From the IMG/VR virus record IMGVR_UViG_3300047481_001036: a stretch of DNA of 64,000 bases. One strand, given 5' to 3'. This DNA comes from a virus. Under the pieces are notes generated by a model. The model had not been told where the DNA came from, searched no databases, and saw only the letters and a list, made by a program, of their open reading frames with translations. The translations under genes were made by a program, and so were the position numbers. Below, in pieces: positions 10,545 through 29,167 of this stretch. Within the stretch, counting starts at the first letter, position 1. Every line of letters starts with the position of its first letter.

Positions 10545-13500
10545 TTAATTAAACCACGTTGGACCATTGTTAGGATTATCACACCACCAAGGAGTATTAT
10601 TACTATCTATTAAATCTTGATCGGTACATAAAGCAGCAACATCTGAATCTAATCTTAATGGTTTAGCATTAAATGAGCAACCATCTGATACGCAACTTAC
10701 ATGATCTTCATAAACAATAGCGTTAGGATTGTCCCATTGTGGTTGTAAATTGGTTCTTGGTACCACAAGAGTACCATTAGGAGCAACCTGACCAGACGTA
10801 TCCTCTTCTGTTGGTGCTGTTATGTTTGTAAATTTTCTTGGAGATCTAATAGTACCGTCACCAACTATGATATGATCAACGTATAACCATCCACTAACAC
10901 TTAAGTTGGCAAATAAAGAAGCGGGTTGTTTTGTAGTATTTTCTGTTCCAGATGCTACTAAAAACGGCTCGTTTCTTTTTACTGTAACCGCAGATGTTCC
11001 TCTGGTAGATAAAGTATCTACCGGAGAATAATAAGCGGCTTTATGCCATTCGTTTAAGTTAGGTAACCAATATTTTCTATATGAAGACTTAACTACATTA
11101 TATGATAAATCTCCAATATATAATACATTATATGCACCAATGTCAAGATTATAATCTATATTGTCTTCTAATAAATTTAAATTAGCTCCATTATGCAACC
11201 AGTTAATGAATCTAATACAACTAATATAATTCACAAATAATACTGGCTTATTGCTCATATTTGGTTTCGTAGTATACACATACTCATTATTATCGTCCGT
11301 TATTCTGAGTATACCTCCCTGAGAATCAGAACCCATTCTACTATCGTATAGTCCTCTGTCATTAATTTTTGCTACAGCATTTAAGAATATACAATATTGA
11401 TTATTAGTGATTTCATTGCGGCCTATTCTATAAGTGTTAGGAACTACCCCTAAATCATTAATAATAACTGGAGAATATGAATTATTAACTTTCAAATATG
11501 TTGTAGAGTCATCGGATCTGTTCTGAGGATCAGCAACACTAACAAAAGATAATCCTAGACCAGTAGTGCTGATAATGTTGGCAGAGTCCGTGATATTGAA
11601 TAAAGAAGCGATTCTAAAACCTACATAATTATATCCCGAACCGCGGACCAGCGATTCTATATGTTTAAGACCACTAGGTCCAATCGGAGCAGAACCGCCA
11701 GTAGCCAGAGGAGTTAGGTATGAGCCTCCACAAACAAACTCTTCTATGTCTCTAGATTCTATTACGGAAGGCTTATCTACCCACTCAGAAGCATTACCAT
11801 TTTGGTCATAAGTACCGTAATAAGAAGGTCTACCATTTGATCCTACATCAGAAACTATACCACTAAATAAATTAGTATTATTATAGTTATAGTTAAAATT
11901 AGCAGAAGAGAATGTGTTGGATAGTCCTATGCCGCTAGAATTAATGATAATTGGAAAAACATCAGATTCTGTGGTTGCAAAAGGGGCGTATTCTCCTGAC
12001 TGAAAACTTAATCTTCCAATATTTGCTTTAATATTTAGGGCTGGCTGAGGATCAATACCATATATAGTAAAATCAATATCTTTTCGTCTAGTATTAAAAA
12101 CAGTATTAGTTAATGGTCTTATGCTAAGAATATTTTCACTGGCATCGGAAATAATTCCATTATCAACCTTTTTACTTATTGACAAAAAACCAGCTTGCGT
12201 AATAGACAAGACAGTAACTTCTGCCACAGTAGTTTGAGTAACAATTTGATCTAGTAATAAACCTGTAATTTGATCAGATGAGGAATCTATTCCTACTATT
12301 CTACGATAAAAATTACCATCATATGAAGTAATAACAACTTGATCTCCCACTACGAATTCGGTAGATGATACCGGATTATCAAACGTTATTTGTCTCAAAC
12401 AGACAGATGCTGATCTAGGATTATATTTATTCCATATAATGTCTTCTTCGGTTAAAAAATAATCATCTAAATTATAGATACCTGTAATAGCGCCATTTGT
12501 AGTTGTAGTTAAGAATCTATTAGCGGGAATTGGTAATGAGATAGTGCCCAAACTATTTGCTGATAAGGTATTACTGCCTACAATCTGATTGTCACTATCT
12601 ACAACTAATATGCTGCTTGGTGCTATATTAGGCACTACCATTGTGGTAGACTGAATATTAGATGATGATATTGAGTTAGCAATTAATGATCCTGGTATAT
12701 TAGTATTAGACTGACCACTACCAATAGAAATATTAGATCCTTGAAGAGAAATAGTATTACTATTTATTGTTGTTGAACTAGTTCCTAAATTAATGCTATT
12801 AGACGCATTTTTAAGTTGTACAACATTAGTATTGCTATTAATAGATAAATTAATACCACTATATCCCACTTTAACAGAACTAGGGTCGGCAGCTAGTATA
12901 TTAATACCGGTATTATTAGATCTAATATTTATATCAAAAGCGCCCTTTGGGTTATTTAGATCTACGGCCCTAGCTTCTAAAGATACATAGTCTATTTTAT
13001 TATTATTGCCATCTTTAGCCGCTAAATTTATTTGTCCTACAACACTATTAGGTAATATAGTAGTTGACGGCTTGTGATATAGTGTCATATTTGCTGGATG
13101 ACAACTATTACGATTTTCTAGTCTAAAACCTTCTTGGCATATATTATTTACAACGTGAAAAATAGTTGATGGTCTAGCACCAGAAGGTATGTTAATGCCT
13201 AGTCTGCCATCGTAGGCAAAAAAGAGATTTCTGTTGCCACTACCATAAACTATAAAATCTCCATTGCTTTTGCTATTATTAAATACCGTATTACCAGAGG
13301 AGGGAAGTATCACATTTGCATCAGCAATACTATCACTGCCAATAAGCATTTGACTATTTAAAGAATCCCAATAAGCTTCTGATCCTAATAAATCATTACC
13401 ACTTTTATATTGTAGAGATTGATCGTCTCCTTGAGGGCTGCTCATGGTTTGCAACACAGTTTCAGAGCCATCAAATAACGACTGTGTTCCAACTACAATA

Positions 13501-14114
13501 TTCGATTCTGTTTGACGATCTACAATTATCCATTGTTTGCCATCACTAGCAATCTTTATATATTCATTAAGCGTCAAATTTGCTACAACACTATTATTAG
13601 AATCTCTAACTAATAGATGATGATTTCCCGATCCTATAACTTTACATTCTACTACAATATTAGATGCTATAGAAGCAGAAGGTAATGACAGATTAATGTC
13701 TTGATTGGTGCAGTCTGCTAGGTAGAGGGCTTTAACTGAGTTAGCTTTATAATCTTTATCTAATACAACGGTATTATGTATAGAGGCGTCAAAAATTTGT
13801 TGATTAGCAAATAAGTAAAACTCATTTTTGTCTGATGTATTATCAAAATTAATAGGACTATTATTATTGGAGCTATAAACTATATTTAATCTAGAGACAA
13901 CTATGTCTCCTTCATTATTTAATTTGACTTCCCCAACTCCGGTCTCTATTTGTTGATTTTGAACATTACGGGCTAAATAAGGGATATAATATCCAATATG
14001 ATTATGAGATAAATAATTAAATCCGCTAATAATAGCGTGTTTAGTAAAACTATTATTTTTAGTTATAAATGTAAAACCAATATTATCAAATATTTTTGTA
14101 ATTTTATTAGACAT
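10545..14114 (-). CDS. Tail/receptor-binding protein with circularly permuted FGE-sulfatase (SUMF1/CLec-fold) domain
   Basis: YGTYDQNGNASEW...GGS...GFRIAS followed by YRIGRNEITNNQY...KPVLFV...WLPNLNEWHKAAYY. Confidence 0.75.
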   Translation of the reverse strand: MSNKITKIFDNIGFTFITKNNSFTKHAIISGFNYLSHNHIGYYIPYLARNVQNQQIETGVGEVKLNNEGDIVVSRLNIVYSSNNNSPINFDNTSDKNEFYLFANQQIFDASIHNTVVLDKDYKANSVKALYLADCTNQDINLSLPSASIASNIVVECKVIGSGNHHLLVRDSNNSVVANLTLNEYIKIASDGKQWIIVDRQTESNIVVGTQSLFDGSETVLQTMSSPQGDDQSLQYKSGNDLLGSEAYWDSLNSQMLIGSDSIADANVILPSSGNTVFNNSKSNGDFIVYGSGNRNLFFAYDGRLGINIPSGARPSTIFHVVNNICQEGFRLENRNSCHPANMTLYHKPSTTILPNSVVGQINLAAKDGNNNKIDYVSLEARAVDLNNPKGAFDINIRSNNTGINILAADPSSVKVGYSGINLSINSNTNVVQLKNASNSINLGTSSTTINSNTISLQGSNISIGSGQSNTNIPGSLIANSISSSNIQSTTMVVPNIAPSSILVVDSDNQIVGSNTLSANSLGTISLPIPANRFLTTTTNGAITGIYNLDDYFLTEEDIIWNKYNPRSASVCLRQITFDNPVSSTEFVVGDQVVITSYDGNFYRRIVGIDSSSDQITGLLLDQIVTQTTVAEVTVLSITQAGFLSISKKVDNGIISDASENILSIRPLTNTVFNTRRKDIDFTIYGIDPQPALNIKANIGRLSFQSGEYAPFATTESDVFPIIINSSGIGLSNTFSSANFNYNYNNTNLFSGIVSDVGSNGRPSYYGTYDQNGNASEWVDKPSVIESRDIEEFVCGGSYLTPLATGGSAPIGPSGLKHIESLVRGSGYNYVGFRIASLFNITDSANIISTTGLGLSFVSVADPQNRSDDSTTYLKVNNSYSPVIINDLGVVPNTYRIGRNEITNNQYCIFLNAVAKINDRGLYDSRMGSDSQGGILRITDDNNEYVYTTKPNMSNKPVLFVNYISCIRFINWLHNGANLNLLEDNIDYNLDIGAYNVLYIGDLSYNVVKSSYRKYWLPNLNEWHKAAYYSPVDTLSTRGTSAVTVKRNEPFLVASGTENTTKQPASLFANLSVSGWLYVDHIIVGDGTIRSPRKFTNITAPTEEDTSGQVAPNGTLVVPRTNLQPQWDNPNAIVYEDHVSCVSDGCSFNAKPLRLDSDVAALCTDQDLIDSNNTPWWCDNPNNGPTWFN

Positions 14115-17100
14115 TATGCCATTCCCATTATTTTAGATGAATCTGGACCAAATACGCCAGCGTCTAGATTACCCACACCCTTATTTACTCTTTGAAAAGC
14201 ATTATTCATTTGATTTTTTGTATTTTCAGCCATTGTTGGTCCTAGAGTATTTAATACATTATTTGCTGCTTCTAGACCATTAAATCTATGGTCTGTTTCA
14301 ACTCTACCGGTAAACTTAACTTCTGGTGCAAACTGGTTTAACTCTGTGCCAACTTGAGCTAGATTTGATGAAGCTCCTGTCATGCCATCTACTACGGTTT
14401 GTCCAATACTACCGAAATTACCAATGGCTTCATTAAACATGGAGGCTACTTCTTTAACTTGTGAAATTTGGCCAACAATATTGCTTAATCCAGCCATAGC
14501 AGCATTTATAGCATTCCCAATATCAGTAGATACACCACTATTAGCTGAGCCCGTATTAGTAACTTGACCTCCTTCTTGATAATATTTAGGAGGACTAACT
14601 AAACCACCATTAGCCAAATATTGTACAATACCACCACGATTATAATAGCCATTATTAATAGCATTTAATACTGGCATGTGTTGTTGAGCGGCTTGTCTAT
14701 TGACTACAAATTCGCCCGGAGTTAGCATAGCAGGAACAGTATCGGTGCCTTGTCTAGCAGCTATTAAGGCTCCATTATTAGCATAAACTATACCTCCCTT
14801 ATTCATTTTAGCTGCTGGAGAAGGATTAATGTCTGGTCTTCTTCGTTTGAGTGTTTTTTTACTAAACTTAGTTCCTCTGATCCAGGCTTCCATCAGATCG
14901 TCGTGAGTATATCCCATTTTAAGTCCCAAATTATATCGTTCTAAAGCAGCTGGATCAGAAGCCAATTCTATGATCTTATTCAATTTTGTCTGTAAACTAG
15001 GATCTAGTTCCCTATTAGAAGGTAAATCTGGATGTAACCACTTACTGCCTTGTCGTTGTAATGTTCTAACATCATCAGGACTAATAGACTGTCCTGCTTT
15101 AGCTCCAACTATATCATATATAGTAGCTTGCTTTTCTGATAATTGTGATATTAGAGATTCTCTTGTTCTATTTTCCTGTTTAGGAGATGAACTACTAGCA
15201 TTGATTTGCGCCTGCTCTTTAGCCTTAGCAGCAGATGCTTCTTGTTGTTGTTTTAATTTATTCTCTTGTGCTTGTTTTAATTGTGCTTCTTCAATTTGTT
15301 TTTGTTTTGTAGCTGCTTCTGCTCTCTGTTTTGCTTCTGATGCTTGTTGTTGTTTTAATTGTTCTGCTTTGATTCTTTGCTCATCTAATGACTTTTGTTT
15401 AGCTATTGATTCGGCTCTTTGTTCAGCTTCTTTTTTGGCTGTTTTAGCTGATTCCGCCGCTCTAGTTGCTTTCTTTTGTGTCTCTGCCGATTCTGCTGCT
15501 TCTTTAGCCCTAGCTCTAGCAGCGTTGGCTTGTAGTGGATCTACTAAATCATCAGATGATGTTTTTGCACTACTTCGTGTAGGATTAGTAGAAGAAGCAA
15601 CACTGTCTACTTTACCGGTAGCAAAAAACGGATCCCCAACAGTACCTGTCGGTGGATTGTAGTTTACTCCTCCTGGCTGTCTCATAGAGTCTAGTTGTGC
15701 TTTAGTTGAGGAGTCTGATACCACCTGACCTGATCTTGGTGGTACAGTAAACGGGTCTTCTTTTGTTCCTAGTCCTCTGATACCTTTTTGAGATCTCAGA
15801 ACTTCTGATACTTTGGTAGGATCTCCTCCTGTTAGCTGTGAATACATTTTAGCTTTAGCCATATCTGCTTCTCTCATCTTCATGGCTTTTTCTAAAATTT
15901 CTTTACGGTGATATTTCATAGCTGCTTCGGGAGATAGCTTGCCTCCAGCAATAGATTTACGAGCACTATCAAAATAGTCGTCAATAGATCCAATATTACC
16001 ATAGGCTACATCGATATCTGCCCTAGCTGGTCCTCGTAAAAATACACTATCTTTTACAGCATTAAATGTTCCAATCATATCTTTCCCAAAGTCCGTATCT
16101 GCCATAGATTTAACACCTTTAGCAGCTTTACCTCTAATGAATCCCAGACCAGAAGATAGCATATCAGATACCGGGGCGGTGAAAGAGGACAGTCTTCCTC
16201 CTGTGACTCTATTACCTATAGAACCTAGTGCTTTACCAGCGAAGCTGGTTACTGTTCCAGGAGAAGTAGCTAAATTATCTAGTGCGCTAAATGCTCTTGC
16301 TGATTTTTCTAAAATTCCAGCACCAGGAGCTGGATTAGTTAAGCCTGCTACGGCAGGAGCTAGTTGACTAGCAACATAGCCTGTATTTTGAAAAAATCTA
16401 GTAGCTCCGCCATATGGTCCTGCTTGCTGTACTCTTTCATCATCGCCTTGATGTAACCATGTTTTATCTCCCGTCATAATTGGGCCTTGACCGGCTACGG
16501 CCTGAGCCGCTTCAACGGCTGTATATGCTCCTTGTGCCATGGCGTTAAGTCCTACAGAAGCTGCCGCTGCTGTTGATGATTCTCCTTTATAATCTGATGC
16601 TTGAGCTTGTGCTAAAGCAGCATTTTGGTCTGATCCCTGTGGTCCCAATACTCCCATAGCTGCTTGTTTTTCTTGAATAGCTCTGGTTTGAGCTGCTAAT
16701 TTTTCTCCTCTGGCAACTTCTTCTGCACTGTTGCCAGCGAAATATCCAATAACCGGACTAGCAGCAACTGTAGCTGCACCGGCCACAACATTAGCAGCAC
16801 CATAAGCCATTTCTCCGGTGGCTTGACCCAACCCACCCAGATAACCTAGACCAGCCGTCAATGGATTGCTACTATTAATCCATAAACTATCTTGCTTAGC
16901 TTTTGCTTCTTGTGCTACTTTAGCTTGTTGCGCAGCAGCTTGTTCTGCTTGTCTCTTTTCCGCATCTGCTTTAGCTTGTGCTGCTTTTTGTTCTGCTGCT
17001 TGTTGAGCCGCTGCGGCTTGAGCTTCAGCTTTGGCAGCAGCATCTTTATCTGATGCGTATTTATCAATACTCTTATCAGCCATTGCGGCATTTAGAGTAT

Positions 17101-20100
17101 TTTGTCTAACTGTTGATGCTAGTGACTCGTTAGATCGTACAATAGAACCCTTGGTCTGATCTAGTGCTGCTTGTGTTTTTGTACTACTAGTAAACGATGC
17201 TGCTCTTTCTTCTAGTTTAGCTGCTTGGTTTCTATATTCCTCAATAGTTTTGGTACTATCTACATTTTTGATACCAGCCAAGTTATCTGCCGCTTGTCTA
17301 TAAGCCGCTGCCTGATTCTTAATCTGTGTTATATTATCTTCGGAAAGTCGTGAATCTACAGGATCAACAAAGGTAAATACTTTATCGTTAATATCTTTTT
17401 GAGCAGCTCCTAGCTGTTGACCAAAGTCCTCATTGATCAGGGCGGCGACAGTTGTGTCTCGTTTTTTAGCTTCATCTTTTTGTGCTTGTCTTTGTTGCTT
17501 AAATTCTTCATTAAACTCACCGGTTTTAGCATCAGTATTCTTCTTAATGAATTCACTAGCATCTTTTTCGTACTTAAGGGCAAGTCGATCTTTTTCTTCT
17601 TGTTTAACTACTCCCTCCTGTTGTTCTGCCCAGAATTTACCTAAAGCAGCAGTATCTTTGATTCCTGCTTCCATATTAGTAGACAAGAAATTCTCAAATT
17701 GGGCGGTCTGTCTTTGTTCTTCTATCTTTGATAGGTTCTTTTGATCAATGCCGTATTGTACACTGGTTTTATAAGCTTCTGCTGTGGTTTTTGCACGATC
17801 TAGGGTCTTGGTATTATTCTCTGCTGCTCTTTCAGCGTCAGATAAAGTTTTACCGAATGCTTCTTCTCTTTGTTTAACTTCGGCAATAACTGCTTTTCGT
17901 CTGTCTCGTTGCTGTGTTTCATAATCGAATAGAAAATCAGAATCGGCTTGAGACAACGAATCAGGGTCTTTTTTAGACAATACGTCGAAACGCTTATCGT
18001 CTCTTGCGTATTGTTTTTGTTTTTCTTGTTCTACAAACTGATCCGCAGTAATACTACTAGAAATTCTACCTTTAGCTAAATCATCTTCATACTTTAGCTG
18101 TAAATATCTATTCTGTTGATCTGGTGTTCTTTGTGCCTGGGGAATATTTGCTAATGATCTTCTGGCTGCGTCTCTAGATGCTATTGATGTGCGAGATAGT
18201 GCTGTCGCAGATTCTGATGAGCTGGTTGGGGCATATTGAGGCATAGTGGCTGGCCTAGATCCATCCGCAGTCGGAGGCATAGTAGTCGATGACTTTTCAT
18301 CTTTACTAGCTTCTCGCATTTTTGTCTGTTGATCATACTCTGCCTGTGATGCCGCTGCATAAGCGGCTTGTGATCTGTCTCTCTCTTGTCTGAAAAAACT
18401 AAGTCGATGTTCACTAGTAAATCTATCACTACTCCATAAACCCGTAGCTTCATCTGCTTTTCCTTTTTCAGCAACATAAGCGTCTCTTCTCGCTGTGTAA
18501 TCCTGGTCTAGTTGTTGAAATCTAGGTAAATTCTTCTGTGTCTCAGCATTCTGTTGCTCCTCCGTCATACTGCTCCATTTAGATCCAAATTGTTCTTCTG
18601 TCCATTGTCTAGCAGATGTGTCTACCATAGCCCCATTGGTAATAAACATCTGTTCTTGATCTGCTGCAATCCTTTCATTTTGTAGTCTAACTAACTCTTG
18701 TTGATCTGCTGGAGAAACCCCATTGTTAGCTACCTGCTCCTCTTTCTTTGGTTGTCCACCACTAGCCAAATAAACCACACCGCCCTTACTCATGGTTTTT
18801 GATACCATAGCATCAGATCCACTATTAATAGCCTTCAATAGTGGTAGGTGTTGAGCAGTAGATCTAGCATTAACAACGAATTCTCCGGGAGTCAACATCG
18901 CTGGAACCGTGTCAGTTCCTTTAGGAGCAAAATCTATTAATTTACCCGTACTAGCATATACAGTATCAGATTTTAAAGAATCTATTCCCCAGATTCTATT
19001 ACGTTCCGCTTTAGCTGCTACGATACTCATTAAGATTCTTAATGCATTCTGTAGTTGTGCATCAGAGTAGCTTGATGTATTTTGACCACTATCTAAAACA
19101 GATTGAATTTGTTGTATAATTTCTAGGATTGATGCTCGTTGTCTTTGTGACGGTTCTCGTAGCGTTCCTGAACTTAAAAGTTCATTTTCTAAACCTTCTC
19201 TAATTTTAGGATTATATCTATTTAGATAAGCCTGTTGTCTTTCAAAAGCAATCTCATCAATAGTCATACCACGAGCCACGCCTTCTCTATACATACCAAC
19301 TTCTGCCATATTTCTAGGTCCACGCATAACAGGTATTGTAGCAAGAGTTTGATTAATTTGTTCGTTAGATGCTCCTTGACTCCTCATACTGGATGCTAGT
19401 CTTCTTCTATCTCTATCAGTCATAGGAGTATTCATAGCTCGTACAATAGGTCGAGCCTCCTCCATATGAGCATTTATTGCTGCTTCGTTTCTAGCAATAG
19501 GAGATGCTGGAGAGAGAGACAAATTCATAGCACTAGTTGTGGTAACTTCCTCTGCTCCAGGAATACCGTCTATCGAAATTGGTCTTGTTGTTCTTCTTTC
19601 TGAGTAACCTATATTCTTATAAGGACCTTCATTACCGAATCTCATAGCCTCTAAATTATAAGCAGATGATTCGTATTTGTTGATATCAGATGGATCCTTA
19701 TAGATCTGTTCGGCCCTAATACTTCCGTCTATTTTCTTACCAGATTTGTCCCTAAACATACCAGTAGGATCAGCTATATAAGTAGCACCATCTCTAGTAG
19801 TATATGTTTTGCCCATACCTTGATTAAAAGCAAAATTGAATCTCTGATCAACTAATTCTCTAGTATTATTTAGTCTACGAGCCCCCATTTCTGTATCTGC
19901 TGCTTTTGCTGCTGCTTCTGCTTGATCTCTTCTTTGGCGAATATAACTATCTACTTGTTCTTCTGTAGCAATACCATCTGCGCGCCCGCTAGCTGCTCGT
20001 CTAACTTCCATGTCTTCTGGCGTTAGTGTTTTTTCTCCGGTAGCTATTTGTCTATCTTCTTCCAAGCTTCGTCTAACACTTAATTTATCTGCTTCTAATT

Positions 20101-23100
20101 GTTGACTAGGAGTTCTATAGTCCATACCCTTAGCTTCTCGCTCTTCATATTGTTTTCTTAAAGAGTAAGCCTGATTAGATGCTTTAATAGACTGTTCTCG
20201 ACGATCCTGAATATTTTTATCTATTTGTTCTTGAGATAGTGCTCCTGCTCCAAGATTATCGGGGTCTGCTCCATATCTCCATGTTTGTTTAGTATTAAAG
20301 GCAGAGCGAGCCTGATCCATAAATGGTGCGACCTTCGCTTGTCTTTCTTCTGGAGACATATTAAGCCATTCTATCCTATCTTGATTCATCACATAATCAT
20401 TAGCTGCTTGTTCTGGTGTTGTGGCATCAGAAGACAGGAACGAATATTCGCGATCAGCGTTACCGGCAGCGCTCTCAGCAGCATCTAACTGTTGTTTAAG
20501 AGCTTCTTTACCTCCTCCTGTTAAGTATGCTTGATTAGCTTCTGTTACTCTCTGATCAAAAAAGGTTTGGTCTTGATCTAAAGTTTTATCCTTTCTAAGC
20601 GAATTGGCTAACCATCCTCCACGACTTAAGTAAACCAATCCTCCCTTTCTCATAATTGTTGGCACTATATTAGATCCACTATTAATAGACTTTAATAATG
20701 GCAGATGTTGTGCTGTAGATCTTGCATTAACTACAAATTCTCCAGGAGTCAACATTGCTGGTACAGTATCTGATCCTCTAGGAGAAAAATCAACTAAAGC
20801 TCCCTTAGAAGCTCTCATAGGTTGAGATGGTCTAGGCAATCCAAAGTTTAAAGCTACCATCTCTTGACCAGCAGCATTTTGTTTAGCATTAGCTACTTTG
20901 CCATCTAAGCCCATATTAGCATTAATAGTATCAGTTAAGTTTTTAATACTTAAATTTAAATCATCAGTAGCAGTAGTTAGCAATCTTTGAGCATTAGCTA
21001 GTTCTAAACGGCCTTGTTCTTCTGTGGCTTTAGCTTGTAAGCCAACAGTTTGTAAAAACTGCTCAGCAGCTCTTTTCATAGCAGGATCGGCATTAGGATC
21101 TAATTTGGCTGCTATTGCTTGTTGAACCATAGGATTGCGACTCATTCCACTCTCTACGGCCATTTGCCTCATAAGAGTAGCTTCTTGCTGTCTAAATCTT
21201 TGATCAATTTGCTGATCAGACATGCCCTGATTCTTCATATTTAATGTGAGCATAGCTCTAAAACCAGGATCTTGCATTAGTCCTAATGTTTCTTTACGCT
21301 GGTTGGCTAATACAGTATTACCTGCTTTGGAAGCTTCTCTGACACTACCTGTGCGTCGTAATGTTTCATTAAATGCTTTACGCGCATCTCTCTGGTTATC
21401 CGGATTATTTAATCCACCAGATAGATTTCTTTGTAATCTAATCATTGCCTTATTAAGATTTTCCATCTCTTCAGGCGTACCAGTTAATAACTTATTCACA
21501 AAGTCTTCACGACCTTGTTGTAATCCTTTGATATTCTTAACTTCATCTAAAGCTTTTTGTGCCAACTCAGCACTATCTGCTAATTTATCTAATGCTTCTC
21601 TATTATTATTAAGAGCAGTATTAGTAGCAGTTAAATTTGTCGTTAGTTTTTTGGCTTCGTCAACATCTCCGGCATCATTAGCTTTTTTAAGATCCTCTTG
21701 CTGTTGTTGTCTTTGTTGTTCTAGATTTTGTATATTTTGACGAATAGCTGTTGGATCGGTAATACCACCTGTTAGATCTCCTACTTCTTGATCAAATCTA
21801 GCCTTGGCTTCTTCAAAGCTTTCTCCCACACCAGTTTGTGCTTCTCTAAGATCCATCTTTCCGCGATATCTAATCTTATCAGCGCTCTTAAAATAATTTT
21901 CAGCTAATTTAGCTGCTTTTGCTGCTTCTTGAACATTTTCGATGAATTGATTAAATGCTCTTTGTCTTTCTTTTAGTAGAGCTGCTGATTCTGATACTGC
22001 TCGCGCTCCAATTTCTCCTAAAGACTTGCTTGTATCTCTAATAGATTCTATAAACTTATCTAAGGCTTCTTGAGGATTACCTCCTGACTCTTCCATATCC
22101 TTACTAAGTTGCTGTTGACTAGACTTAATATTGCCTTCTAATTGTTTTATTAATTGATTAGTAATTTCTGGTGGTAAATTAAGACTTTTTATCTCTTCTG
22201 TACCTTTTGTGATAGCGATCTTAGCAGCCTCTTCTGGACTTAATCCAGCATTACCCTTAAGTTCTTGAGCAATAGCATTGGTCATTTTATCAGGAAGTTC
22301 CACAGAAGCTATAGCGGCTCCTCGTAGCATTTGACCTTGTTTGCCACCTAGCATATTCGCAGCACTATCAGCTGCTTCTCTAAACGCTTTAGGATCATTT
22401 TTATAGGCTAGTGGATTTTCTAATACATTAATAGCTTTTGAATCAAGCTGTTCAATACTAGCATTTCCTCTAAGAGCATTCACACTAGATTGAGCAGCTT
22501 GTTGTCTAGCTTTGGACTCAAATTGTATTCTATTAATAGATTGACCAATAGTATCATATAATTGATTAAAGCTAAGAGCTAGTTGTCTACCAGCCCTATT
22601 AGCCTCTTCCATTGCTTTAGCTAATTCTATAGATTTTTTAGCGGCTTGGATAGAAGCATTGTTTTTAATCATCTCAGAAATAATAGCTTCTCTATTTGCT
22701 TTAACTTCGTCAGCGGCTGCTTCATTGCCTGATTTTCGTAATTCTTCCTCTCTGGCCATTAAAGGTAGTATTTTTTCTAATGCTTGTCTATCAGATCCTA
22801 TTATAGCCATTCTTTCATTAGCATATTCTGGTGCTGTTGCTAAATCTTTTCCTTCTTGACCGCTTAAAGCAACCCCAGAACGAAGAGCACGTTCAATACT
22901 CATCATTGCTGCTCTATTGGCTTCTTGATATTTTGGAGCCATATCTTTGGCCATAGTCTCATAATCTTTACCAGTTAAAGAAAAACTGTTAATTGACTCT
23001 GGCTTAAATGTAGTATCTCCATATCCTAACAAAGGGGCAATAAAACTAGATTCTCCAGCCCACTCCATCAAAGTTCTTTCTGATTTTGTACGCTCTATAA

Positions 23101-26100
23101 CTTTATTGCGAGTATCAGCAAATTGATCATTAAATACTTCACTATTATCTTTAATATTTTCTTGTAATCTAGTCTTAACCAAATTTTGTAAATCAACATT
23201 ATTTACATCTTTAGATAAATTATCCAAAGCCTTCCCTAATGCTTCAGCAGAATTTTCTGCTTTTCTATTAGACTCTCTTAATGCAAATTCCAAAGCGGCT
23301 TCTGTAGCAGCTTTGACTCCATCGGTCCATGCTTTTATAGCAGTAACACCTAGTACCATCGCTGCTATGAATGGACCAACCCCTGGTATAGCCGTTAAAG
23401 AGCTGGCCGTTGCTAATCCTGTGGCAACGGTAGATGTTCCGGCCTCGAATGCTGCAACTCTTGATGCATTATTAATATTAGCATCTTTCTTACCAAAAAA
23501 GCTTTCACCTTGACCAGCTAACATACCAACTGCCATACTACCGTAAAAGCCAACGTTACCACCAACCACACCTCTCATTCCCCTACTAAAACCTGATTGA
23601 TCAAGCTTAGACATAGCCATTTGAGCTTTATTCATAGCTGCTCTGGTATTGTCCATAGCTCTAGATAATAAAGATGAGCTTTGTTCAGCTGTTTTTGTTC
23701 GTCTATATAAACCACCCCAAGCATCTGCAACCTGTCTTTCCGCCGCAGATAGTGCTTCTTGCATAGATATACTATTATCTATGGATCGAATTTGTTTAGC
23801 TATAGCTAATGCTTGTTTCCTTTGAGCGTCAGCAACAGAATTAGCTGCTTTTTGATCTCCTGTTTCAGCAGCTCTCATAGTTGTAAAGTCTGCTTGCGTA
23901 ACTTGATCTTTTGCCTGAGCATATGCGGTATCAAAACCTACCGAAGGATTGATAGCTATAATATCTTTAATTATTTTATCCATCAACTGTTCTACAGCAG
24001 CCTCTAATGCTTTCTCCGTTTTTGCCGATACCGGATCAAAAGATCCAACAGCCTCAGCCATTTTTTCTGGTGTTCCACCCTTAGCAAAACGCTGAACAAC
24101 ACCTCCTTTATTAAATCCTTGAATTTTATCTGCTCTATTTAATGTATGTAGTCTAGCAGATCCTATTCGTTGTGCTGCTTTTTTATTTATAACAAATTCG
24201 CCAGGAGTTAATAATGCTGGTACAGTATCCTCAACACTTCCTCCTACAGCATACTTGATAGAATTGTCATATTTTGGATTAAATTTAGCATCTACTGGTC
24301 CTTTGAGCATATTAGCTAGTGCTAATTGATTAGCAGTAGCTCTAGGAGTTTCAGGAGTAATAGCGCTTAATAGACTAGCAGGATTCATTCTTAGTCCTGC
24401 TTTATTTTTCTTTCTCTGAATGCTTTGTGCTAAATAAGTTTTAAACTCATCCATACTAAAATCATTAGTATTAGCAAATTTTACCAACTCATTAAATTCT
24501 GGGTTGGATAATCCACTTCCTTTTTGCAGATCATAGACTGATCCGCCTAATTTAAATCTTTGTACTAAGCCTCCTTCTGCAAATTGTGAACGACCAAGTT
24601 TTTTTCGTGCTTCTAATCGGCCTCTATCAAATTGACCTTTTGTTACTTTCCTTTTAGCATTATCCATAGAAGCCATATTAGTTACGTCTGTCATAACACC
24701 AGGATCAACACCTAGTAATGAAGCAACTGGACTACTAAGACCTCCTAAAAAGTCTATAGAACTTGATGAAGGATCGTAATTGCCACTAGCTAGTCCTAAG
24801 CCTTTTTCAAAAATAGATCCGGCTATATCTTCTAAATCTTTACCGGCTATATTACGCAAAGTTTTACGATTAGGTTGTATAGAGGTGCCTGCGGCTTTTG
24901 CTATCTGTCTGCCAACATCATTCACTAATCTTTCTACATTATTACGAATTAGTGCTTGTACTCTTTTAGCTACTCCAGGAGGCAGTGATCCTGTTTGTAG
25001 TGTGGCAGGAACCGCTCTTACAGAAGCTCCGGTTTCTTTATCTGTAGCGCCAACAGTCTTAACTTCTGAAGATGATCGTTCTCCTGATATTCCAACAACT
25101 GCTATTTTTCTATTTTGTGCGATAGCACTATCTACTGCCGCTGACTGTTGCTCACTAGACATAGCATCAACAATAGACTGTATAAAAGACTGTTTAGTAG
25201 CTGACTCTAAAGAGGATAATGGGGTTTTACTACTTGCTCTTTTACCTAATATATCATATATATTAACTGGCTTAGCGATACCATACTTAGAAGCTAATCC
25301 CAATAGTTCGGATCTGCCTTTGGACGCTACTTCGGCGAAACCTCCAACAGATAATTTTTGAATAAAGCCGCCTAAATTTTTACGTTGAACATCAGTAAAA
25401 TCTAATGCATATTTGTCTGGTTCTGCTTGTGCTAATCTAGCTAATATCTCATACGGCCTAAATGATCCTATGCTTTTAATCTTTTGTTTTTTTGCTCTTA
25501 GTTCTTGTAGTGCTTCTACTTGGGTGGCATATTCCGGATCTGTCTGTGCTCGTTTAGTATCTATTCTCTTAATTCCTAACTTATCTATTTCTTTATCAAT
25601 ATCTTGTAAAGATACAGCTTCTGTTTTTTGTGATTCTGATATAATTTCTGGTAATACATTAGATCTATTTTGTAATTTACTTAAATTTTTAAGTATAATA
25701 CCATAAACACCAGGAGACAAGACTTCTTTTAATTTTCCTGTTTGACCAGAAAGAATAAGATCTCTGACCATAGTACCACTAATACCACCAGTTCTTTCTA
25801 TATTGGCTACTCCGTATCCTGCGGCTTTATATTTTTCTGTTTGTTCTGCTGTCTTATCTGCTACGAAAGCTTTGCTTCCCTTTTGGGGCAATAGTACTTT
25901 ACGACGGCCACTACCAGGATCTGTAATATCAAACGCTTGTGGTACTTCAAAATCTCTAGGCTTAGGCAATACTCTAGCTCCCCTAGTACCAGCACCAGCT
26001 TTAGCCAACATAACTCTAAAGTCTTGATCAAATACTGCTGTTCTATAACTAGATGGATCACCACTTTTAATACCTTCATTAGATCCGACTAAATATAGAA

Positions 26101-29100
26101 AATCTTCTGGCGGAATACCCATAGCAGCCGCGGCATCCATAATACTTTCATGGCCAGCTGTCATTGGAGAAAAACTACCCCAAGTGAAACCTATTTTTTT
26201 CTTTATGGTTTCTACTAATTCATTTCCTTTTTTACGTCTTAGTCTACCAGAAGTTGATCTACCAAGAACTACAGATTTTTTACCTAATGCATCTCCTAGT
26301 AAAGCCTCTCCTACAGCAGTGTCTGCTGATACCCCTGTAGTAGTTCCAGGCTTACGTCCTTCTAATCCAACTCCAGTAGTATCTCTAGCACTTCTCTGAG
26401 ATCTTACTCGTTCTCTTTCTGCTGAAGTAGTACTACTCAACGTATATGCTCTATCTACGCTAGATAAGTAGTCATCCATTTTAGACTTAGAAACACTGCT
26501 ACTCAATATCAAAACTTCGGTAGCTTTTGAAACATCTTCAGGACTTAAGATAGGAAATCTTTCTGTTTGTCTTAATTTCCCTTTGTCTGTACCTTGTCCG
26601 CGAGCTAATGTAGTTTTTCCAGAACCAGCTACCCCATAAACTGCGCTTAGTTTGTTTAAACTATTAGCTTTACGCGATCTAACAGCTAATTGAGTTAAAT
26701 AATCAGCATATAATCTAGGGCCAGTAGTACCAGAAGATTTCATCCCGGCTTCAACAATATTTTTATTAGCTTCATTAGCTATAACATCATAATCTATATA
26801 CCCAACCCGTCTCTGTACCGAGCCTCCTACAGCAAATTTCTGTCGAGATCTTTTAGCCTCTAATTGTCCTGCTTTAAATTGTTCTATAAATTTTCGTTTC
26901 TCTACCTCATCAGTCTCATAAACTAATGCTTCTCCTAAGTCAATAGCTCTAGGGCCAGCATCTCTTTTCTGAGTAAATTTCCATGTATTTTTAGGTTGTA
27001 ATAATTTATGTCTTAATTTTTTACTTAATATATGTTGATAACTAACTGGTCTATCTGTAAACTTAACTTCTGCAAAATCTCCATCACTACTATATAAATC
27101 TAAAGGATAACTACCTCCATAATCTTTATTGGAACTAGTAGTTTTCCATTGTTTACCTAATCTTTTAGTCATTAAATTTTCAAAAGCTGTTCCCCAAACA
27201 TTTTTATTTAGATTCTCTATGCTTCCTTTAAATCTTTTTTCTCCAGGCTTGAATCGATTGGGATTAAGACTTTGCTTAAATAAGTATTTTTTGTCGGCTT
27301 CTGATAGTGAAATTTTTTGTCTTTTTTCGGTAGCAAATACCTCGTCAGCATACTGAATAATATCTGAATTATCTCTTTGTGCTTTCTTTATAAATGATCC
27401 GCCTTTACTAGATTCAGATAGTTTTTTAATAGAAACTTTTCCTCCTCCAGCATATTTGTTCATTCTATGCAATCTATTCATTCCTATAGCTTGAACAGCT
27501 TTTTTTCTAATCACAAACTCTCCGGGTTCTAACATAGCTGGAACAGTATCGCCATCTCCTACTCCTGGTACCACACCACCGCGAGCAAATTTCTTGATAT
27601 ATCCACCAGAATTTACTTTTTGTTTTTTGCCGAACCCTCCAATAAATCCAGCAGTAAATTGTGTCAGAGCGGACGCTCCTTTAAATGCTCCTAAAACTCC
27701 TAAAACCGGAATAATACCTTTAATACTATCTGCAACTTTAATCATAGCACTAGTTAAATCTAGTGCTCCTCGTATCATAGTTTGAAAACCTTTTGAATTA
27801 CCAATCTCTCTAAACAAAGCAAAAAATTCTTCTTTTACTTTAGTAATTTTATTAGCTAAAGATTCTTGTGCTTTAGCAGCATCCAAGGCTAACGATCCTT
27901 GGCCTCTTTGTGCTACTTTTAAGGCTTCTTGTGCAGTTGTGAATTGTTGAATAAGAGGAATAACCTTACCAATCTGTCTAAAACCACCTAATTCTTCTAC
28001 AATTTGTGAGAATTTCAAATCTCTAGGATCTAGCTTACTAAGTCCACTAGACAATAGTTCTACAGCCTTATAGGCTCCTACGAATTTACCCTCTGCATCT
28101 GTAAGATCTACTCCGAATTGCTTAAGAGCATTTATTGTAGCTCCTCGTTGTAAACGAGTAAAAATGGTTCTTAAGCCTGTAGCAATAGTCTCTGCGCTTT
28201 CACGAGTAGTAGCTCGTACACTAGTAAATACAGAAATAAATTCATTTAGCGCATCTGTTCCTTCAGACACTCCTTTACTGGCAGCGGCAAACACACCACC
28301 AGTACGCTGAATAGCAGTAATAATATCACTAGACTCTACTGCAAACTGAGCTGCTACTGAATTAACTGAGCCTAGGGCTTTTTCTAAATCTCCTGCGCTA
28401 ATACCAAACTGTCTCATTAATGCAATACTGCCTTCTACAGTTTGATTCATATCATCGAAAGATGGAGTCAAAGAACTTAGTGCCAGAGCCTTAAGTGCTT
28501 TTTCTGTATCTCTAGCACTTAAACCAGCCTGTGCTAATGTTGAAGCTACCTCTGTAATATCAGATGAAGCAACACCTAGTCCTGTAGACAGACCAGTTAT
28601 AGTATCAGACAATCCTTTTAGTCCTGCGGCAGATTGACCTGTGACTTGTTGTAGTTTTACAAATTGTTTGTCATATTCAATAAAAGCTTGAATACCTGAT
28701 GTAATGGCATTAGTAACACCGAAAATAACACTAGTGACACCGGTAAATGCAGCAAATCTACGAACAGCCAGATAAGCCTGTTTACCGAATTCTTGCATCT
28801 CTGTTGTAGCGCCAGCTAGACTATTGCCGCTATTTGCCGCTGTACTATTTAATTTATTGATACTAGCAACTGTAGCGTTAATTTGTTGAGGCACATTTTT
28901 GATATTTACGCTATTAATAGCGGAACCAAATGATCTAATGGCTCTAGCAGCATTGGTAGCATTAGTTGTAGTGGATCCTAATGTAGTATTAAGATTACGT
29001 AAAGCAGAATTAAGTGCTGATGTATTTCTAACAGCTGTTGGATCTAGACGAAACTGCACATTAGCATTAATCGTTCCAAGATCTCGTCTAATATCAGCAA

Positions 29101-29167
29101 CAATCTTCTTAACATTAGATGGTCCTCTAAGATTAAGTTGTGCTGTTAAGTTAAAAGCCTGTGCCAT
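14114..29167 (-). CDS. Giant tail tape measure protein (5017 aa) with inserted enzyme-like domains
   Basis: TP901-type TMP core in first ~500 aa; lies after tail tubes/chaperones; 5 DTVPAxLxPGEFV motifs; P-loop, HIGH-type, PD-(D/E)XK and HPD motifs. Confidence 0.9.
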   Translation of the reverse strand: MAQAFNLTAQLNLRGPSNVKKIVADIRRDLGTINANVQFRLDPTAVRNTSALNSALRNLNTTLGSTTTNATNAARAIRSFGSAINSVNIKNVPQQINATVASINKLNSTAANSGNSLAGATTEMQEFGKQAYLAVRRFAAFTGVTSVIFGVTNAITSGIQAFIEYDKQFVKLQQVTGQSAAGLKGLSDTITGLSTGLGVASSDITEVASTLAQAGLSARDTEKALKALALSSLTPSFDDMNQTVEGSIALMRQFGISAGDLEKALGSVNSVAAQFAVESSDIITAIQRTGGVFAAASKGVSEGTDALNEFISVFTSVRATTRESAETIATGLRTIFTRLQRGATINALKQFGVDLTDAEGKFVGAYKAVELLSSGLSKLDPRDLKFSQIVEELGGFRQIGKVIPLIQQFTTAQEALKVAQRGQGSLALDAAKAQESLANKITKVKEEFFALFREIGNSKGFQTMIRGALDLTSAMIKVADSIKGIIPVLGVLGAFKGASALTQFTAGFIGGFGKKQKVNSGGYIKKFARGGVVPGVGDGDTVPAMLEPGEFVIRKKAVQAIGMNRLHRMNKYAGGGKVSIKKLSESSKGGSFIKKAQRDNSDIIQYADEVFATEKRQKISLSEADKKYLFKQSLNPNRFKPGEKRFKGSIENLNKNVWGTAFENLMTKRLGKQWKTTSSNKDYGGSYPLDLYSSDGDFAEVKFTDRPVSYQHILSKKLRHKLLQPKNTWKFTQKRDAGPRAIDLGEALVYETDEVEKRKFIEQFKAGQLEAKRSRQKFAVGGSVQRRVGYIDYDVIANEANKNIVEAGMKSSGTTGPRLYADYLTQLAVRSRKANSLNKLSAVYGVAGSGKTTLARGQGTDKGKLRQTERFPILSPEDVSKATEVLILSSSVSKSKMDDYLSSVDRAYTLSSTTSAERERVRSQRSARDTTGVGLEGRKPGTTTGVSADTAVGEALLGDALGKKSVVLGRSTSGRLRRKKGNELVETIKKKIGFTWGSFSPMTAGHESIMDAAAAMGIPPEDFLYLVGSNEGIKSGDPSSYRTAVFDQDFRVMLAKAGAGTRGARVLPKPRDFEVPQAFDITDPGSGRRKVLLPQKGSKAFVADKTAEQTEKYKAAGYGVANIERTGGISGTMVRDLILSGQTGKLKEVLSPGVYGIILKNLSKLQNRSNVLPEIISESQKTEAVSLQDIDKEIDKLGIKRIDTKRAQTDPEYATQVEALQELRAKKQKIKSIGSFRPYEILARLAQAEPDKYALDFTDVQRKNLGGFIQKLSVGGFAEVASKGRSELLGLASKYGIAKPVNIYDILGKRASSKTPLSSLESATKQSFIQSIVDAMSSEQQSAAVDSAIAQNRKIAVVGISGERSSSEVKTVGATDKETGASVRAVPATLQTGSLPPGVAKRVQALIRNNVERLVNDVGRQIAKAAGTSIQPNRKTLRNIAGKDLEDIAGSIFEKGLGLASGNYDPSSSSIDFLGGLSSPVASLLGVDPGVMTDVTNMASMDNAKRKVTKGQFDRGRLEARKKLGRSQFAEGGLVQRFKLGGSVYDLQKGSGLSNPEFNELVKFANTNDFSMDEFKTYLAQSIQRKKNKAGLRMNPASLLSAITPETPRATANQLALANMLKGPVDAKFNPKYDNSIKYAVGGSVEDTVPALLTPGEFVINKKAAQRIGSARLHTLNRADKIQGFNKGGVVQRFAKGGTPEKMAEAVGSFDPVSAKTEKALEAAVEQLMDKIIKDIIAINPSVGFDTAYAQAKDQVTQADFTTMRAAETGDQKAANSVADAQRKQALAIAKQIRSIDNSISMQEALSAAERQVADAWGGLYRRTKTAEQSSSLLSRAMDNTRAAMNKAQMAMSKLDQSGFSRGMRGVVGGNVGFYGSMAVGMLAGQGESFFGKKDANINNASRVAAFEAGTSTVATGLATASSLTAIPGVGPFIAAMVLGVTAIKAWTDGVKAATEAALEFALRESNRKAENSAEALGKALDNLSKDVNNVDLQNLVKTRLQENIKDNSEVFNDQFADTRNKVIERTKSERTLMEWAGESSFIAPLLGYGDTTFKPESINSFSLTGKDYETMAKDMAPKYQEANRAAMMSIERALRSGVALSGQEGKDLATAPEYANERMAIIGSDRQALEKILPLMAREEELRKSGNEAAADEVKANREAIISEMIKNNASIQAAKKSIELAKAMEEANRAGRQLALSFNQLYDTIGQSINRIQFESKARQQAAQSSVNALRGNASIEQLDSKAINVLENPLAYKNDPKAFREAADSAANMLGGKQGQMLRGAAIASVELPDKMTNAIAQELKGNAGLSPEEAAKIAITKGTEEIKSLNLPPEITNQLIKQLEGNIKSSQQQLSKDMEESGGNPQEALDKFIESIRDTSKSLGEIGARAVSESAALLKERQRAFNQFIENVQEAAKAAKLAENYFKSADKIRYRGKMDLREAQTGVGESFEEAKARFDQEVGDLTGGITDPTAIRQNIQNLEQQRQQQQEDLKKANDAGDVDEAKKLTTNLTATNTALNNNREALDKLADSAELAQKALDEVKNIKGLQQGREDFVNKLLTGTPEEMENLNKAMIRLQRNLSGGLNNPDNQRDARKAFNETLRRTGSVREASKAGNTVLANQRKETLGLMQDPGFRAMLTLNMKNQGMSDQQIDQRFRQQEATLMRQMAVESGMSRNPMVQQAIAAKLDPNADPAMKRAAEQFLQTVGLQAKATEEQGRLELANAQRLLTTATDDLNLSIKNLTDTINANMGLDGKVANAKQNAAGQEMVALNFGLPRPSQPMRASKGALVDFSPRGSDTVPAMLTPGEFVVNARSTAQHLPLLKSINSGSNIVPTIMRKGGLVYLSRGGWLANSLRKDKTLDQDQTFFDQRVTEANQAYLTGGGKEALKQQLDAAESAAGNADREYSFLSSDATTPEQAANDYVMNQDRIEWLNMSPEERQAKVAPFMDQARSAFNTKQTWRYGADPDNLGAGALSQEQIDKNIQDRREQSIKASNQAYSLRKQYEEREAKGMDYRTPSQQLEADKLSVRRSLEEDRQIATGEKTLTPEDMEVRRAASGRADGIATEEQVDSYIRQRRDQAEAAAKAADTEMGARRLNNTRELVDQRFNFAFNQGMGKTYTTRDGATYIADPTGMFRDKSGKKIDGSIRAEQIYKDPSDINKYESSAYNLEAMRFGNEGPYKNIGYSERRTTRPISIDGIPGAEEVTTTSAMNLSLSPASPIARNEAAINAHMEEARPIVRAMNTPMTDRDRRRLASSMRSQGASNEQINQTLATIPVMRGPRNMAEVGMYREGVARGMTIDEIAFERQQAYLNRYNPKIREGLENELLSSGTLREPSQRQRASILEIIQQIQSVLDSGQNTSSYSDAQLQNALRILMSIVAAKAERNRIWGIDSLKSDTVYASTGKLIDFAPKGTDTVPAMLTPGEFVVNARSTAQHLPLLKAINSGSDAMVSKTMSKGGVVYLASGGQPKKEEQVANNGVSPADQQELVRLQNERIAADQEQMFITNGAMVDTSARQWTEEQFGSKWSSMTEEQQNAETQKNLPRFQQLDQDYTARRDAYVAEKGKADEATGLWSSDRFTSEHRLSFFRQERDRSQAAYAAASQAEYDQQTKMREASKDEKSSTTMPPTADGSRPATMPQYAPTSSSESATALSRTSIASRDAARRSLANIPQAQRTPDQQNRYLQLKYEDDLAKGRISSSITADQFVEQEKQKQYARDDKRFDVLSKKDPDSLSQADSDFLFDYETQQRDRRKAVIAEVKQREEAFGKTLSDAERAAENNTKTLDRAKTTAEAYKTSVQYGIDQKNLSKIEEQRQTAQFENFLSTNMEAGIKDTAALGKFWAEQQEGVVKQEEKDRLALKYEKDASEFIKKNTDAKTGEFNEEFKQQRQAQKDEAKKRDTTVAALINEDFGQQLGAAQKDINDKVFTFVDPVDSRLSEDNITQIKNQAAAYRQAADNLAGIKNVDSTKTIEEYRNQAAKLEERAASFTSSTKTQAALDQTKGSIVRSNESLASTVRQNTLNAAMADKSIDKYASDKDAAAKAEAQAAAAQQAAEQKAAQAKADAEKRQAEQAAAQQAKVAQEAKAKQDSLWINSSNPLTAGLGYLGGLGQATGEMAYGAANVVAGAATVAASPVIGYFAGNSAEEVARGEKLAAQTRAIQEKQAAMGVLGPQGSDQNAALAQAQASDYKGESSTAAAASVGLNAMAQGAYTAVEAAQAVAGQGPIMTGDKTWLHQGDDERVQQAGPYGGATRFFQNTGYVASQLAPAVAGLTNPAPGAGILEKSARAFSALDNLATSPGTVTSFAGKALGSIGNRVTGGRLSSFTAPVSDMLSSGLGFIRGKAAKGVKSMADTDFGKDMIGTFNAVKDSVFLRGPARADIDVAYGNIGSIDDYFDSARKSIAGGKLSPEAAMKYHRKEILEKAMKMREADMAKAKMYSQLTGGDPTKVSEVLRSQKGIRGLGTKEDPFTVPPRSGQVVSDSSTKAQLDSMRQPGGVNYNPPTGTVGDPFFATGKVDSVASSTNPTRSSAKTSSDDLVDPLQANAARARAKEAAESAETQKKATRAAESAKTAKKEAEQRAESIAKQKSLDEQRIKAEQLKQQQASEAKQRAEAATKQKQIEEAQLKQAQENKLKQQQEASAAKAKEQAQINASSSSPKQENRTRESLISQLSEKQATIYDIVGAKAGQSISPDDVRTLQRQGSKWLHPDLPSNRELDPSLQTKLNKIIELASDPAALERYNLGLKMGYTHDDLMEAWIRGTKFSKKTLKRRRPDINPSPAAKMNKGGIVYANNGALIAARQGTDTVPAMLTPGEFVVNRQAAQQHMPVLNAINNGYYNRGGIVQYLANGGLVSPPKYYQEGGQVTNTGSANSGVSTDIGNAINAAMAGLSNIVGQISQVKEVASMFNEAIGNFGSIGQTVVDGMTGASSNLAQVGTELNQFAPEVKFTGRVETDHRFNGLEAANNVLNTLGPTMAENTKNQMNNAFQRVNKGVGNLDAGVFGPDSSKIMGMA

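Follow-up and report, generated by a model that had tools for sequence, protein, structure and literature searches.

A predicted kinase-nucleotidyltransferase cassette embedded in a giant phage tail tape measure protein

The carrier protein and its embedded cassette

We analyzed a stretch of 64,000 nucleotides (hereafter the window) that forms part of the IMG/VR virus record IMGVR_UViG_3300047481_001036 (83.6 kb, with a completeness estimate of 58%), and focus here on a cassette of 481 amino acids (aa), pairing a predicted P-loop kinase with a predicted HIGH-class nucleotidyltransferase, that lies inside a giant tail tape measure protein (TMP). The open reading frame (ORF) of the TMP is the longest gene of the record, and its 5,017 codons are translated with no internal stop. 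Residues 188-393 match PF10145 (PhageMin_Tail, E 8.4e-23, Pfam scan), the N-terminal 530 residues match many PHROG tape-measure families in addition to PF10145 (best 1.9e-30), and relatives of the protein match TIGR01760 (tape_meas_TP901, 1.6e-36). Cassette-bearing homologues that have their N-terminus present likewise carry tape-measure domains there. The window also contains a portal gene, located farther along the strand of the TMP gene, and after the TMP gene come large ORFs of tail type that encode FGE-sulfatase and fn3 domains. Judging from these family matches, the ORF is a tail tape measure protein in a phage structural region, which bears out the preliminary description of this DNA. 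The features discussed below are the following:

14114-29167, minus strand: tail tape measure protein, the cassette carrier; one open frame of 5,017 aa
26822-26836, minus strand: upstream linker FAVGG, aa 778-782; string found in the translation
25379-26821, minus strand: kinase-nucleotidyltransferase cassette, 481 aa, aa 783-1263; AlphaFold2 pLDDT 89.6, pTM 0.81
26207-26821, minus strand: P-loop kinase-fold domain, zeta-toxin-like, aa 783-987 (module residues 1-205); AlphaFold2 of the domain alone, pLDDT 88.3
26609-26635, minus strand: Walker A motif GVAGSGKTT, aa 845-853
26321-26383, minus strand: conserved Gly/Arg-rich loop TGxGLxGRxxGxTxGxxxD, candidate lid, aa 929-949; from conservation
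25649-26203, minus strand: predicted HIGH-class nucleotidyltransferase domain, aa 989-1173; from structure match, Foldseek, profile and Pfam
26150-26167, minus strand: HIGH-type motif P-M-T-A-G-H, aa 1001-1006; near-invariant in 79 sequences
25763-25783, minus strand: ISGTMVR, an ISxTxxR ATP-phosphate motif (KMSKS equivalent), aa 1129-1135; near-invariant
25388-25684, minus strand: C-terminal helical hairpin, aa ~1162-1260; model helices at module residues 380-415 and 429-466
25340-25378, minus strand: downstream linkers NLGG (aa 1264-1267) and SVGG (aa 1273-1276); strings in the translation

Residues 783-1263 form a self-contained, linker-bounded cassette. In relatives, the linker before the cassette reads GGhhQKFAxGG, or GFIPNFA in another clade, and the cassette starts directly after it with RxxGYIDxDV; its end is marked by a conserved P(D/E)KYGL, after which a further linker (GGLIQKF or GFIPNFA) follows. 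The preliminary description had placed the P-loop and two transferase motifs within one segment between the FAVGG and NLGG/SVGG linkers, and all of them were found there, at positions that agree with ours within one or two residues: VYGVAGSGKTT (aa 843-853, window 26609-26641), GFTWGSFSPMTAGHESI (aa 993-1009, window 26141-26191) and GGISGTMVRDLI (aa 1127-1138, window 25754-25789). Two of its boundaries need correction. The interval 26609-26635 assigned to VYGVAGSGKTT covers GVAGSGKTT, the full string reaching 26641, and the interval 25700-26830 contains the motifs but ends too early, since the transferase is followed by a conserved helical hairpin that takes the unit to 25379. The domain order, with the kinase N-terminal and the transferase C-terminal, is opposite to that of NadR, as had been proposed.

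Conserved residues and predicted folds

Conservation was assessed in a set of 79 sequences with 25-73% identity to the query (median 37%). The Walker A lysine K851, H1006 of the HIGH motif, and S1130 and R1135 of the ISxTxxR motif are kept in every sequence (79/79 each), followed by P1001 (HIGH motif), T1132 (ISxTxxR motif) and the conserved arginines R938 and R1125 (78/79 each), by G1005 (HIGH motif) and R928, a conserved arginine that adjoins the loop at aa 929-949 (77/79 each), by G845 and G850 of Walker A and D878 and D905 of the kinase half (76/79 each), by T1003 of the HIGH motif (75/79), and by D861 of the kinase half and D949 of the Gly/Arg-rich loop (73/79 each). The whole core set of residues is intact in 73/79 sequences. 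Catalytic residues that stay near-invariant at a median identity of 37% make catalytic competence likely, and this pattern points to two working active sites rather than to a spacer. A non-catalytic spacer or plug, in which the folds of former enzymes would be retained for length or for filling the tail, would agree with the location of the module in a length-determining protein; as the invariance centres on catalytic residues (K851, H1006, S1130, R1135), which would be unexpected for a spacer, we consider this explanation extremely improbable. The loop at aa 929-949, modelled at lower confidence (pLDDT 64-77), may serve as a lid.

A chance match of the P-loop to the pattern GxxxxGK[ST] was also considered and rejected: the motifs are near-invariant in 78 homologues and sit at the expected sites of P-loop and Rossmann-like folds.

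The AlphaFold2 model of the whole cassette was computed from a 22-row alignment, and both folds named in the preliminary description, P-loop and Rossmann-like HIGH, are predicted in it at high confidence and have counterparts among solved structures. The kinase domain is closest to the gonococcal zeta1 toxin (VIA: Z 8.2-8.6, root-mean-square deviation (rmsd) 3.7-4.0 Å, 152-159 residues; for 6epg_B, Z 8.4, rmsd 3.7, 152 aligned). This match spans model residues 4-204, N-terminal helices included, and stands about 2 Z units above other kinases, at a Z that the calibration of the tool ranks as middling. UMP and adenylate kinases (6.3-6.7), AvrRxo1 (5.5-6.2), dephospho-CoA kinases (4.7-6.1) and polynucleotide kinases (PNK, 4.6-6.0) come next, and nearly all the top matches are P-loop kinases. 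Foldseek gives a zeta toxin probability of 0.98-0.99, but an E-value of only ~0.01, and the ESM Atlas look-alikes of the kinase half (AAA_33, PRK, Zeta_toxin; 0.81-0.83) are under the level that counts. The Pfam model Zeta_toxin (PF06414) found no match in the sequence itself at E≤1 and none in 22 family members at E≤0.05. Likewise, AAA_28 (PF13521), the family of the NadR ribosylnicotinamide kinase (RNK), has no match at E≤0.01 in the TMPs of this record and of three relatives (150-238 kb, estimated 100% complete), and NadR is outside the top 50 structural matches. Based on the model, the N-terminal half is reasonably supported as a P-loop kinase fold of zeta-like type, which is as far as the evidence reaches. 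In one relative with a complete genome (197 kb), an AAA_28 protein of 175 aa (L019, G002:C1:180224-180682) is encoded on its own, far from the TMP.

Such a kinase might act as a poison. Like zeta toxins or AvrRxo1, it would then phosphorylate the 3'-OH of a nucleotide-sugar such as UDP-GlcNAc or of a dinucleotide such as NAD+/NaAD, possibly made by the fused transferase, and the dead-end product would weaken wall synthesis at the entry site or arrest host metabolism. The zeta1 match with its N-terminal helices, the presence of AvrRxo1, PezT and epsilon/zeta among the structural matches, and the zeta-like kinases described in injected polyvalent proteins (PMC5512222) all agree with this; but the Zeta_toxin model finds nothing, the Z is middling, the invariably fused HIGH transferase is left unexplained and the copy-number objection raised below applies as well, so that we see poisoning as distinctly unlikely.

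The transferase half gave clearer structural matches. Module residues 207-391 (TMP aa 989-1173) align with the nicotinamide mononucleotide (NMN) adenylyltransferase (NMNAT) of M. jannaschii, 1f9a, at Z 13.3 (VIA; rmsd 2.8 Å, 155/164 aligned), followed by NadM (Z 12.9), phosphopantetheine adenylyltransferase (PPAT, 12.8), NadD (12.7), TmcAL (10.0) and NadR (9.2-9.8). Members of the HIGH superfamily make up 23 of the first 24 matches. Foldseek places PPATs on top (E 1.6e-5), and the family profile retrieves MJ0951 (1.1e-5) and PPAT (1.3e-3) from the PDB sequences, with ISGTMVR aligned to GISGTKIREAI of MJ0951 and TAGH to the corresponding motif of PDB PPATs; in an hhalign comparison, TAGH also pairs with PITNGH of E. 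coli CoaD. By established signatures, PxTxGH is the PPAT and citrate-lyase-ligase form of the motif, and HxGH that of NMNAT and NadD. Among 22 family members, Pfam HIGH_NTase1_ass is found in 14 and CTP_transf_like in four (best 7.7e-6); from NCBIfam, the generic cyt_tran_rel matches at 4.7e-6, and the coaD, citrate-lyase ligase, ribF, nadD and nadM models are only marginal. Used alone as the profile query, the transferase domain returned TMP fragments only and no named stand-alone relatives, a single-sequence search of the PDB sequences returned noise at the level of Walker A, and the ESM Atlas look-alikes of this half are stand-alone viral CTP_transf_like proteins of ~200 aa and unknown function. 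The sequence evidence hence agrees with the structure at superfamily level only. Altogether, the model confirms the C-terminal half as a HIGH-class (TxGH / ISGTxxR) nucleotidyltransferase of the NMNAT/PPAT/NadD structural class, and it is a new subfamily of the HIGH superfamily, outside every named enzyme family.

The resemblance to PPATs suggests a pair as in coenzyme A (CoA) synthase, in which a PPAT would be joined to a dephospho-CoA kinase. TxGH is the form of the motif found in PPATs, no other named enzymes score better in Foldseek and in the sequence-profile search, and several dephospho-CoA kinases occur among the kinase matches, as given above. Yet TIGR01510 (coaD) finds no match in the sequence itself and only one, at E 0.015, among the 22 members, hhalign of the cassette profile aligns the HIGH region alone to E. 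coli CoaD, as it does to NadR (~5% probability for both), and no need of a phage for CoA at entry is known. Such a pair appears very unlikely.

A mobile unit among giant tape measures

We searched 1.84 billion cluster representatives (50% identity clusters) exhaustively with HMMER, using aa 783-1263 as query, and obtained 98 representatives at E≤1e-3, of which 74 reach E≤1e-30. The matching proteins are nearly all 2,000-7,279 aa long, and most full-length matches span query residues ~2-476, at identities down to ~30%. Within these proteins the cassette starts anywhere from residue 13 to ~3,000, and its neighbours vary too. In P0031 and P0027 it is 61-63% identical, while over most of the protein outside it the alignment is poor or absent. 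The variable position and neighbours, together with the high identity of the cassette itself, indicate a discrete mobile unit that is unusually well conserved. In IMG/VR it occurs on contigs of up to 238 kb; no match was found by tblastn in 50,697 deposited phage genomes, no prophage copy in 185,579 prokaryote species genomes, and no family for it in PHROGs.

The cassette is not the only linker-bounded segment of the TMP. Just upstream (aa 591-777, window 26837-27397, minus strand) lies a segment with PLDLY...DFAEVKF, PD-(D/E)xK-like by eye, which has no Pfam or PHROG match and whose homologues adjoin the cassette upstream in only three other giant TMPs. Downstream, two further segments with no family match (aa 1277-1528, window 24584-25339; aa 1543-1638, window 24254-24541; both minus strand) are found again in 7 and 20 further giant TMPs, respectively, at varying distances from the cassette, and look like more shuffled cargo cassettes. 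An ADP-ribosyltransferase (ART) cassette (PF03496) accompanies the module in eight giant TMPs and one short fragment (P0006, E 1.2e-6); carriers include P0006, P0008, P0022, P0050 and P0017, and in 4/9 proteins the ART lies directly upstream of the module.

In P0041 (3,504 aa), the cassette is followed by a linker FAEGG and then by FVFDFDDTL, a DxDxT-like motif of HAD phosphatases. A kinase paired with a HAD domain would recall the polynucleotide kinase-phosphatase of T4. A further reading is a macromolecular target: a PNK-like domain and a transferase or ligase would modify either a protein or the end of a nucleic acid (that of the entering genome or of a damaged tRNA). Such a target would go well with an enzyme of low copy number, PNK structures are found among the kinase matches, the motif in P0041 agrees with it, and the transferase has similarity to TmcAL, MJ0951 and citrate-lyase ligase, enzymes whose targets are tRNA or a carrier protein. 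Since no nucleic-acid-binding domain was identified and the transferase matches NMNAT and PPAT better than TmcAL, we hold a macromolecular target to be highly improbable.

Some further observations concern the carrier and related sequences. The block DTVPA(M/L)L(T/E)PGEFV occurs five times in the TMP (14702-14743, 18872-18913, 20729-20770, 24188-24229 and 27509-27550, minus strand), versus once in ordinary tape measures, where the matching PHROG models place it near the C-terminus (positions 1344-1393 of 1465, or 1822-1944 of 2006, for example). The giant TMP may therefore consist of several tape-measure-like units joined in tandem. A J-domain (HPD) that had been proposed near its C-terminus (window 14930-15124, minus strand) has so far no backing from sequence models, no Pfam family being found at E≤0.01 in aa 3472-5017. 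The TMP gene is followed by genes for a protein of 1,189 aa with an FGE-sulfatase/C-type-lectin-like domain (window 10545-14114, minus strand, E 9.4e-9) and one of 846 aa with an fn3 domain (window 7992-10532, minus strand), which are likely distal tail or receptor-binding proteins. Finally, in P0007 (327 aa, on a contig of 1,157 nt) the P-loop part is fused at GSGKTTLA to a chorismate-binding (anthranilate synthase-like) sequence, which is most likely an assembly chimera.

Proposed working and relation to known systems

Taken from its sequence conservation, the cassette is real and probably active cargo. We propose, and consider this better supported than not, that it comprises a catalytically intact kinase, a HIGH transferase and a hairpin, that it acts as an enzyme in the host, and that it belongs to a set of linker-bounded cargo modules which have been shuffled between the giant tape measures of uncultured long-tailed phages. 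By analogy with the tape measures of model phages, its delivery together with the TMP is probable. The TMP would exit the tail before the DNA, and the cassette would meet ATP in the cytoplasm, where the transferase would use ATP to adenylylate a small phosphorylated metabolite at its phosphate and the kinase would phosphorylate a hydroxyl of the precursor or of the dinucleotide product. Fusions of a P-loop kinase with a HIGH transferase carry out consecutive steps of cofactor synthesis in NadR, animal CoA synthase and PAPS synthase, and the two steps here might follow the same logic. As for the substrate, our leading guess is NAD-linked: nicotinamide riboside (NR) could be converted to NMN and NMN to NAD+, perhaps as a local supply for a co-delivered ART, or NAD+ could be converted to 3'-NADP.

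Several points weigh against this proposal. The sequence itself reaches only 14 bits with PF01467 (cut-off 21; relatives score 15-19 bits in a per-genome search), and the transferase matches generic models (cyt_tran_rel, CTP_transf_like) and no specific equivalog family; for the kinase there is no family-level sequence match, the assignment being structural at a middling Z (8.4-8.6). A folded module of 481 aa would be a tight fit inside the lumen of a tail tube, and a tail contains few copies of its tape measure. As concerns NAD+, the motif is TxGH and not HxGH, the TMP of the window has no ART cassette, and neither PnuC (PF04973) nor Nampt/NAPRTase was found in this record (58% complete) or in the three relatives.

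With so few copies of the TMP per tail, a refilling of the bulk NAD+ pool is implausible, and a local supply, a low-copy target or a poison-type product suits the copy number better. This bears on a NadR- or NARP3-like role, in which the kinase would turn NR into NMN, the transferase would turn NMN into NAD+, and the injected enzyme would restore NAD+ against Sir2, TIR and other NADases. Of the 14 best structural matches of the transferase, 11 are NMN/NaMN adenylyltransferases, the tail of its motif (ISGTxxR...G...P) resembles archaeal NMNAT and TmcAL-type motifs, an NAD+-consuming ART adjoins the module in four relatives, and Bas30_86 (see below) offers a functional precedent; the reversed order, the kinase lacking both an AAA_28 match and NadR among its top 50 structures, the TxGH motif, the failure to find PnuC or Nampt, and a number of molecules per infection that cannot refill an NADase-drained pool make us doubt it, and we rate this role as rather unlikely. 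Since the order is reversed, the TMP has no AAA_28 match, and neither PnuC nor Nampt was found in this record or in the three relatives, the cassette is not a NARP3 member, yet it may act on NAD. A counter to NAD-depleting defences, or an NAD-related substrate, as the preliminary description suggested, found no support in the zeta-like kinase without AAA_28, in TxGH or in the genes searched for. A connection with NAD+ or anti-defence is less likely than not even if "NAD-linked" is taken in its broadest sense, and doubtful if taken narrowly. In the same vein, it is conceivable but not probable that the TMP carries ready-made enzymes of which this cassette makes NAD+ or a related ADP-linked dinucleotide at genome entry, ahead of any phage gene expression, for a co-injected ART or for a local blunting of NAD-targeting immunity.

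To our knowledge, the phage answers to NAD+-depleting immunity (NARP1, NARP2 and NARP3) are soluble enzymes made after the onset of infection. Should our proposal hold true, an enzyme pair in the tail ruler would be active from the first second of infection, and tape measures would be modular injection carriers for cytoplasmic ATP-dependent enzymes, beyond the wall-degrading motifs; if the NAD+/dinucleotide reading also held, this would be the first cofactor-synthesizing enzyme pair known in a phage tail. Our full-text literature search brought up no report of a tape measure that contains a kinase or nucleotidyltransferase. In any case, the cassette defines an unnamed HIGH nucleotidyltransferase subfamily and a compact zeta-like kinase, in a large family (98 clusters at 50% identity).

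A close counterpart is the phage NadR-like protein Bas30_86, which together with a PnuC-like importer rebuilds NAD+ and defeats Sir2-HerA, and which has its NMNAT in residues 1-166 and its RNK in residues 167-351 (PDB 9X6H/9X6F; PMC13464706). Like NadR and Bas30_86, the cassette combines a HIGH-class adenylyltransferase and a P-loop kinase in a single chain, and the NMNAT domain of NadR is among the structural matches (Z 9.2-9.8). However, the cassette has the kinase first, of a type other than AAA_28/RNK, uses TxGH, comes without a PnuC partner and is built into a virion protein, whereas Bas30_86 is a soluble early gene product. With CoaD and the archaeal/NadM NMNATs the transferase shares the fold over the whole domain (Z 12.8-13.3) and ISxTxxR, as well as PxTxGH as in PPAT; it differs from them by an identity of only 12-19%, the missing equivalog match and the additional C-terminal helical hairpin. 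The kinase half, as modelled, resembles the zeta family (gonococcal zeta1, PezT, AvrRxo1) at a middling Z in its P-loop core with N-terminal helices, and it has a Walker A followed by conserved Asp and Arg, but the kinase of the cassette is smaller, has no sequence-family match and no antitoxin partner, and is always fused to a transferase.

With respect to architecture, the cassette compares to the polyvalent proteins of phages and conjugative elements, which include injected zeta-like kinases (Iyer et al. 2017, PMC5512222), and to tape measures with muralytic motifs. The survey of polyvalent proteins makes no mention of tape measures (PMC5512222), and neither an MPTase nor an ArdC hub domain was detected in Pfam scans of the TMP. 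Like a polyvalent protein, one virion-borne giant would here bring several unrelated enzyme domains (ARTs, zeta-like kinases) for the start of infection; what sets the present system apart is that the carrier is the length ruler of the tail, and that its cassettes are separated by GG linkers.

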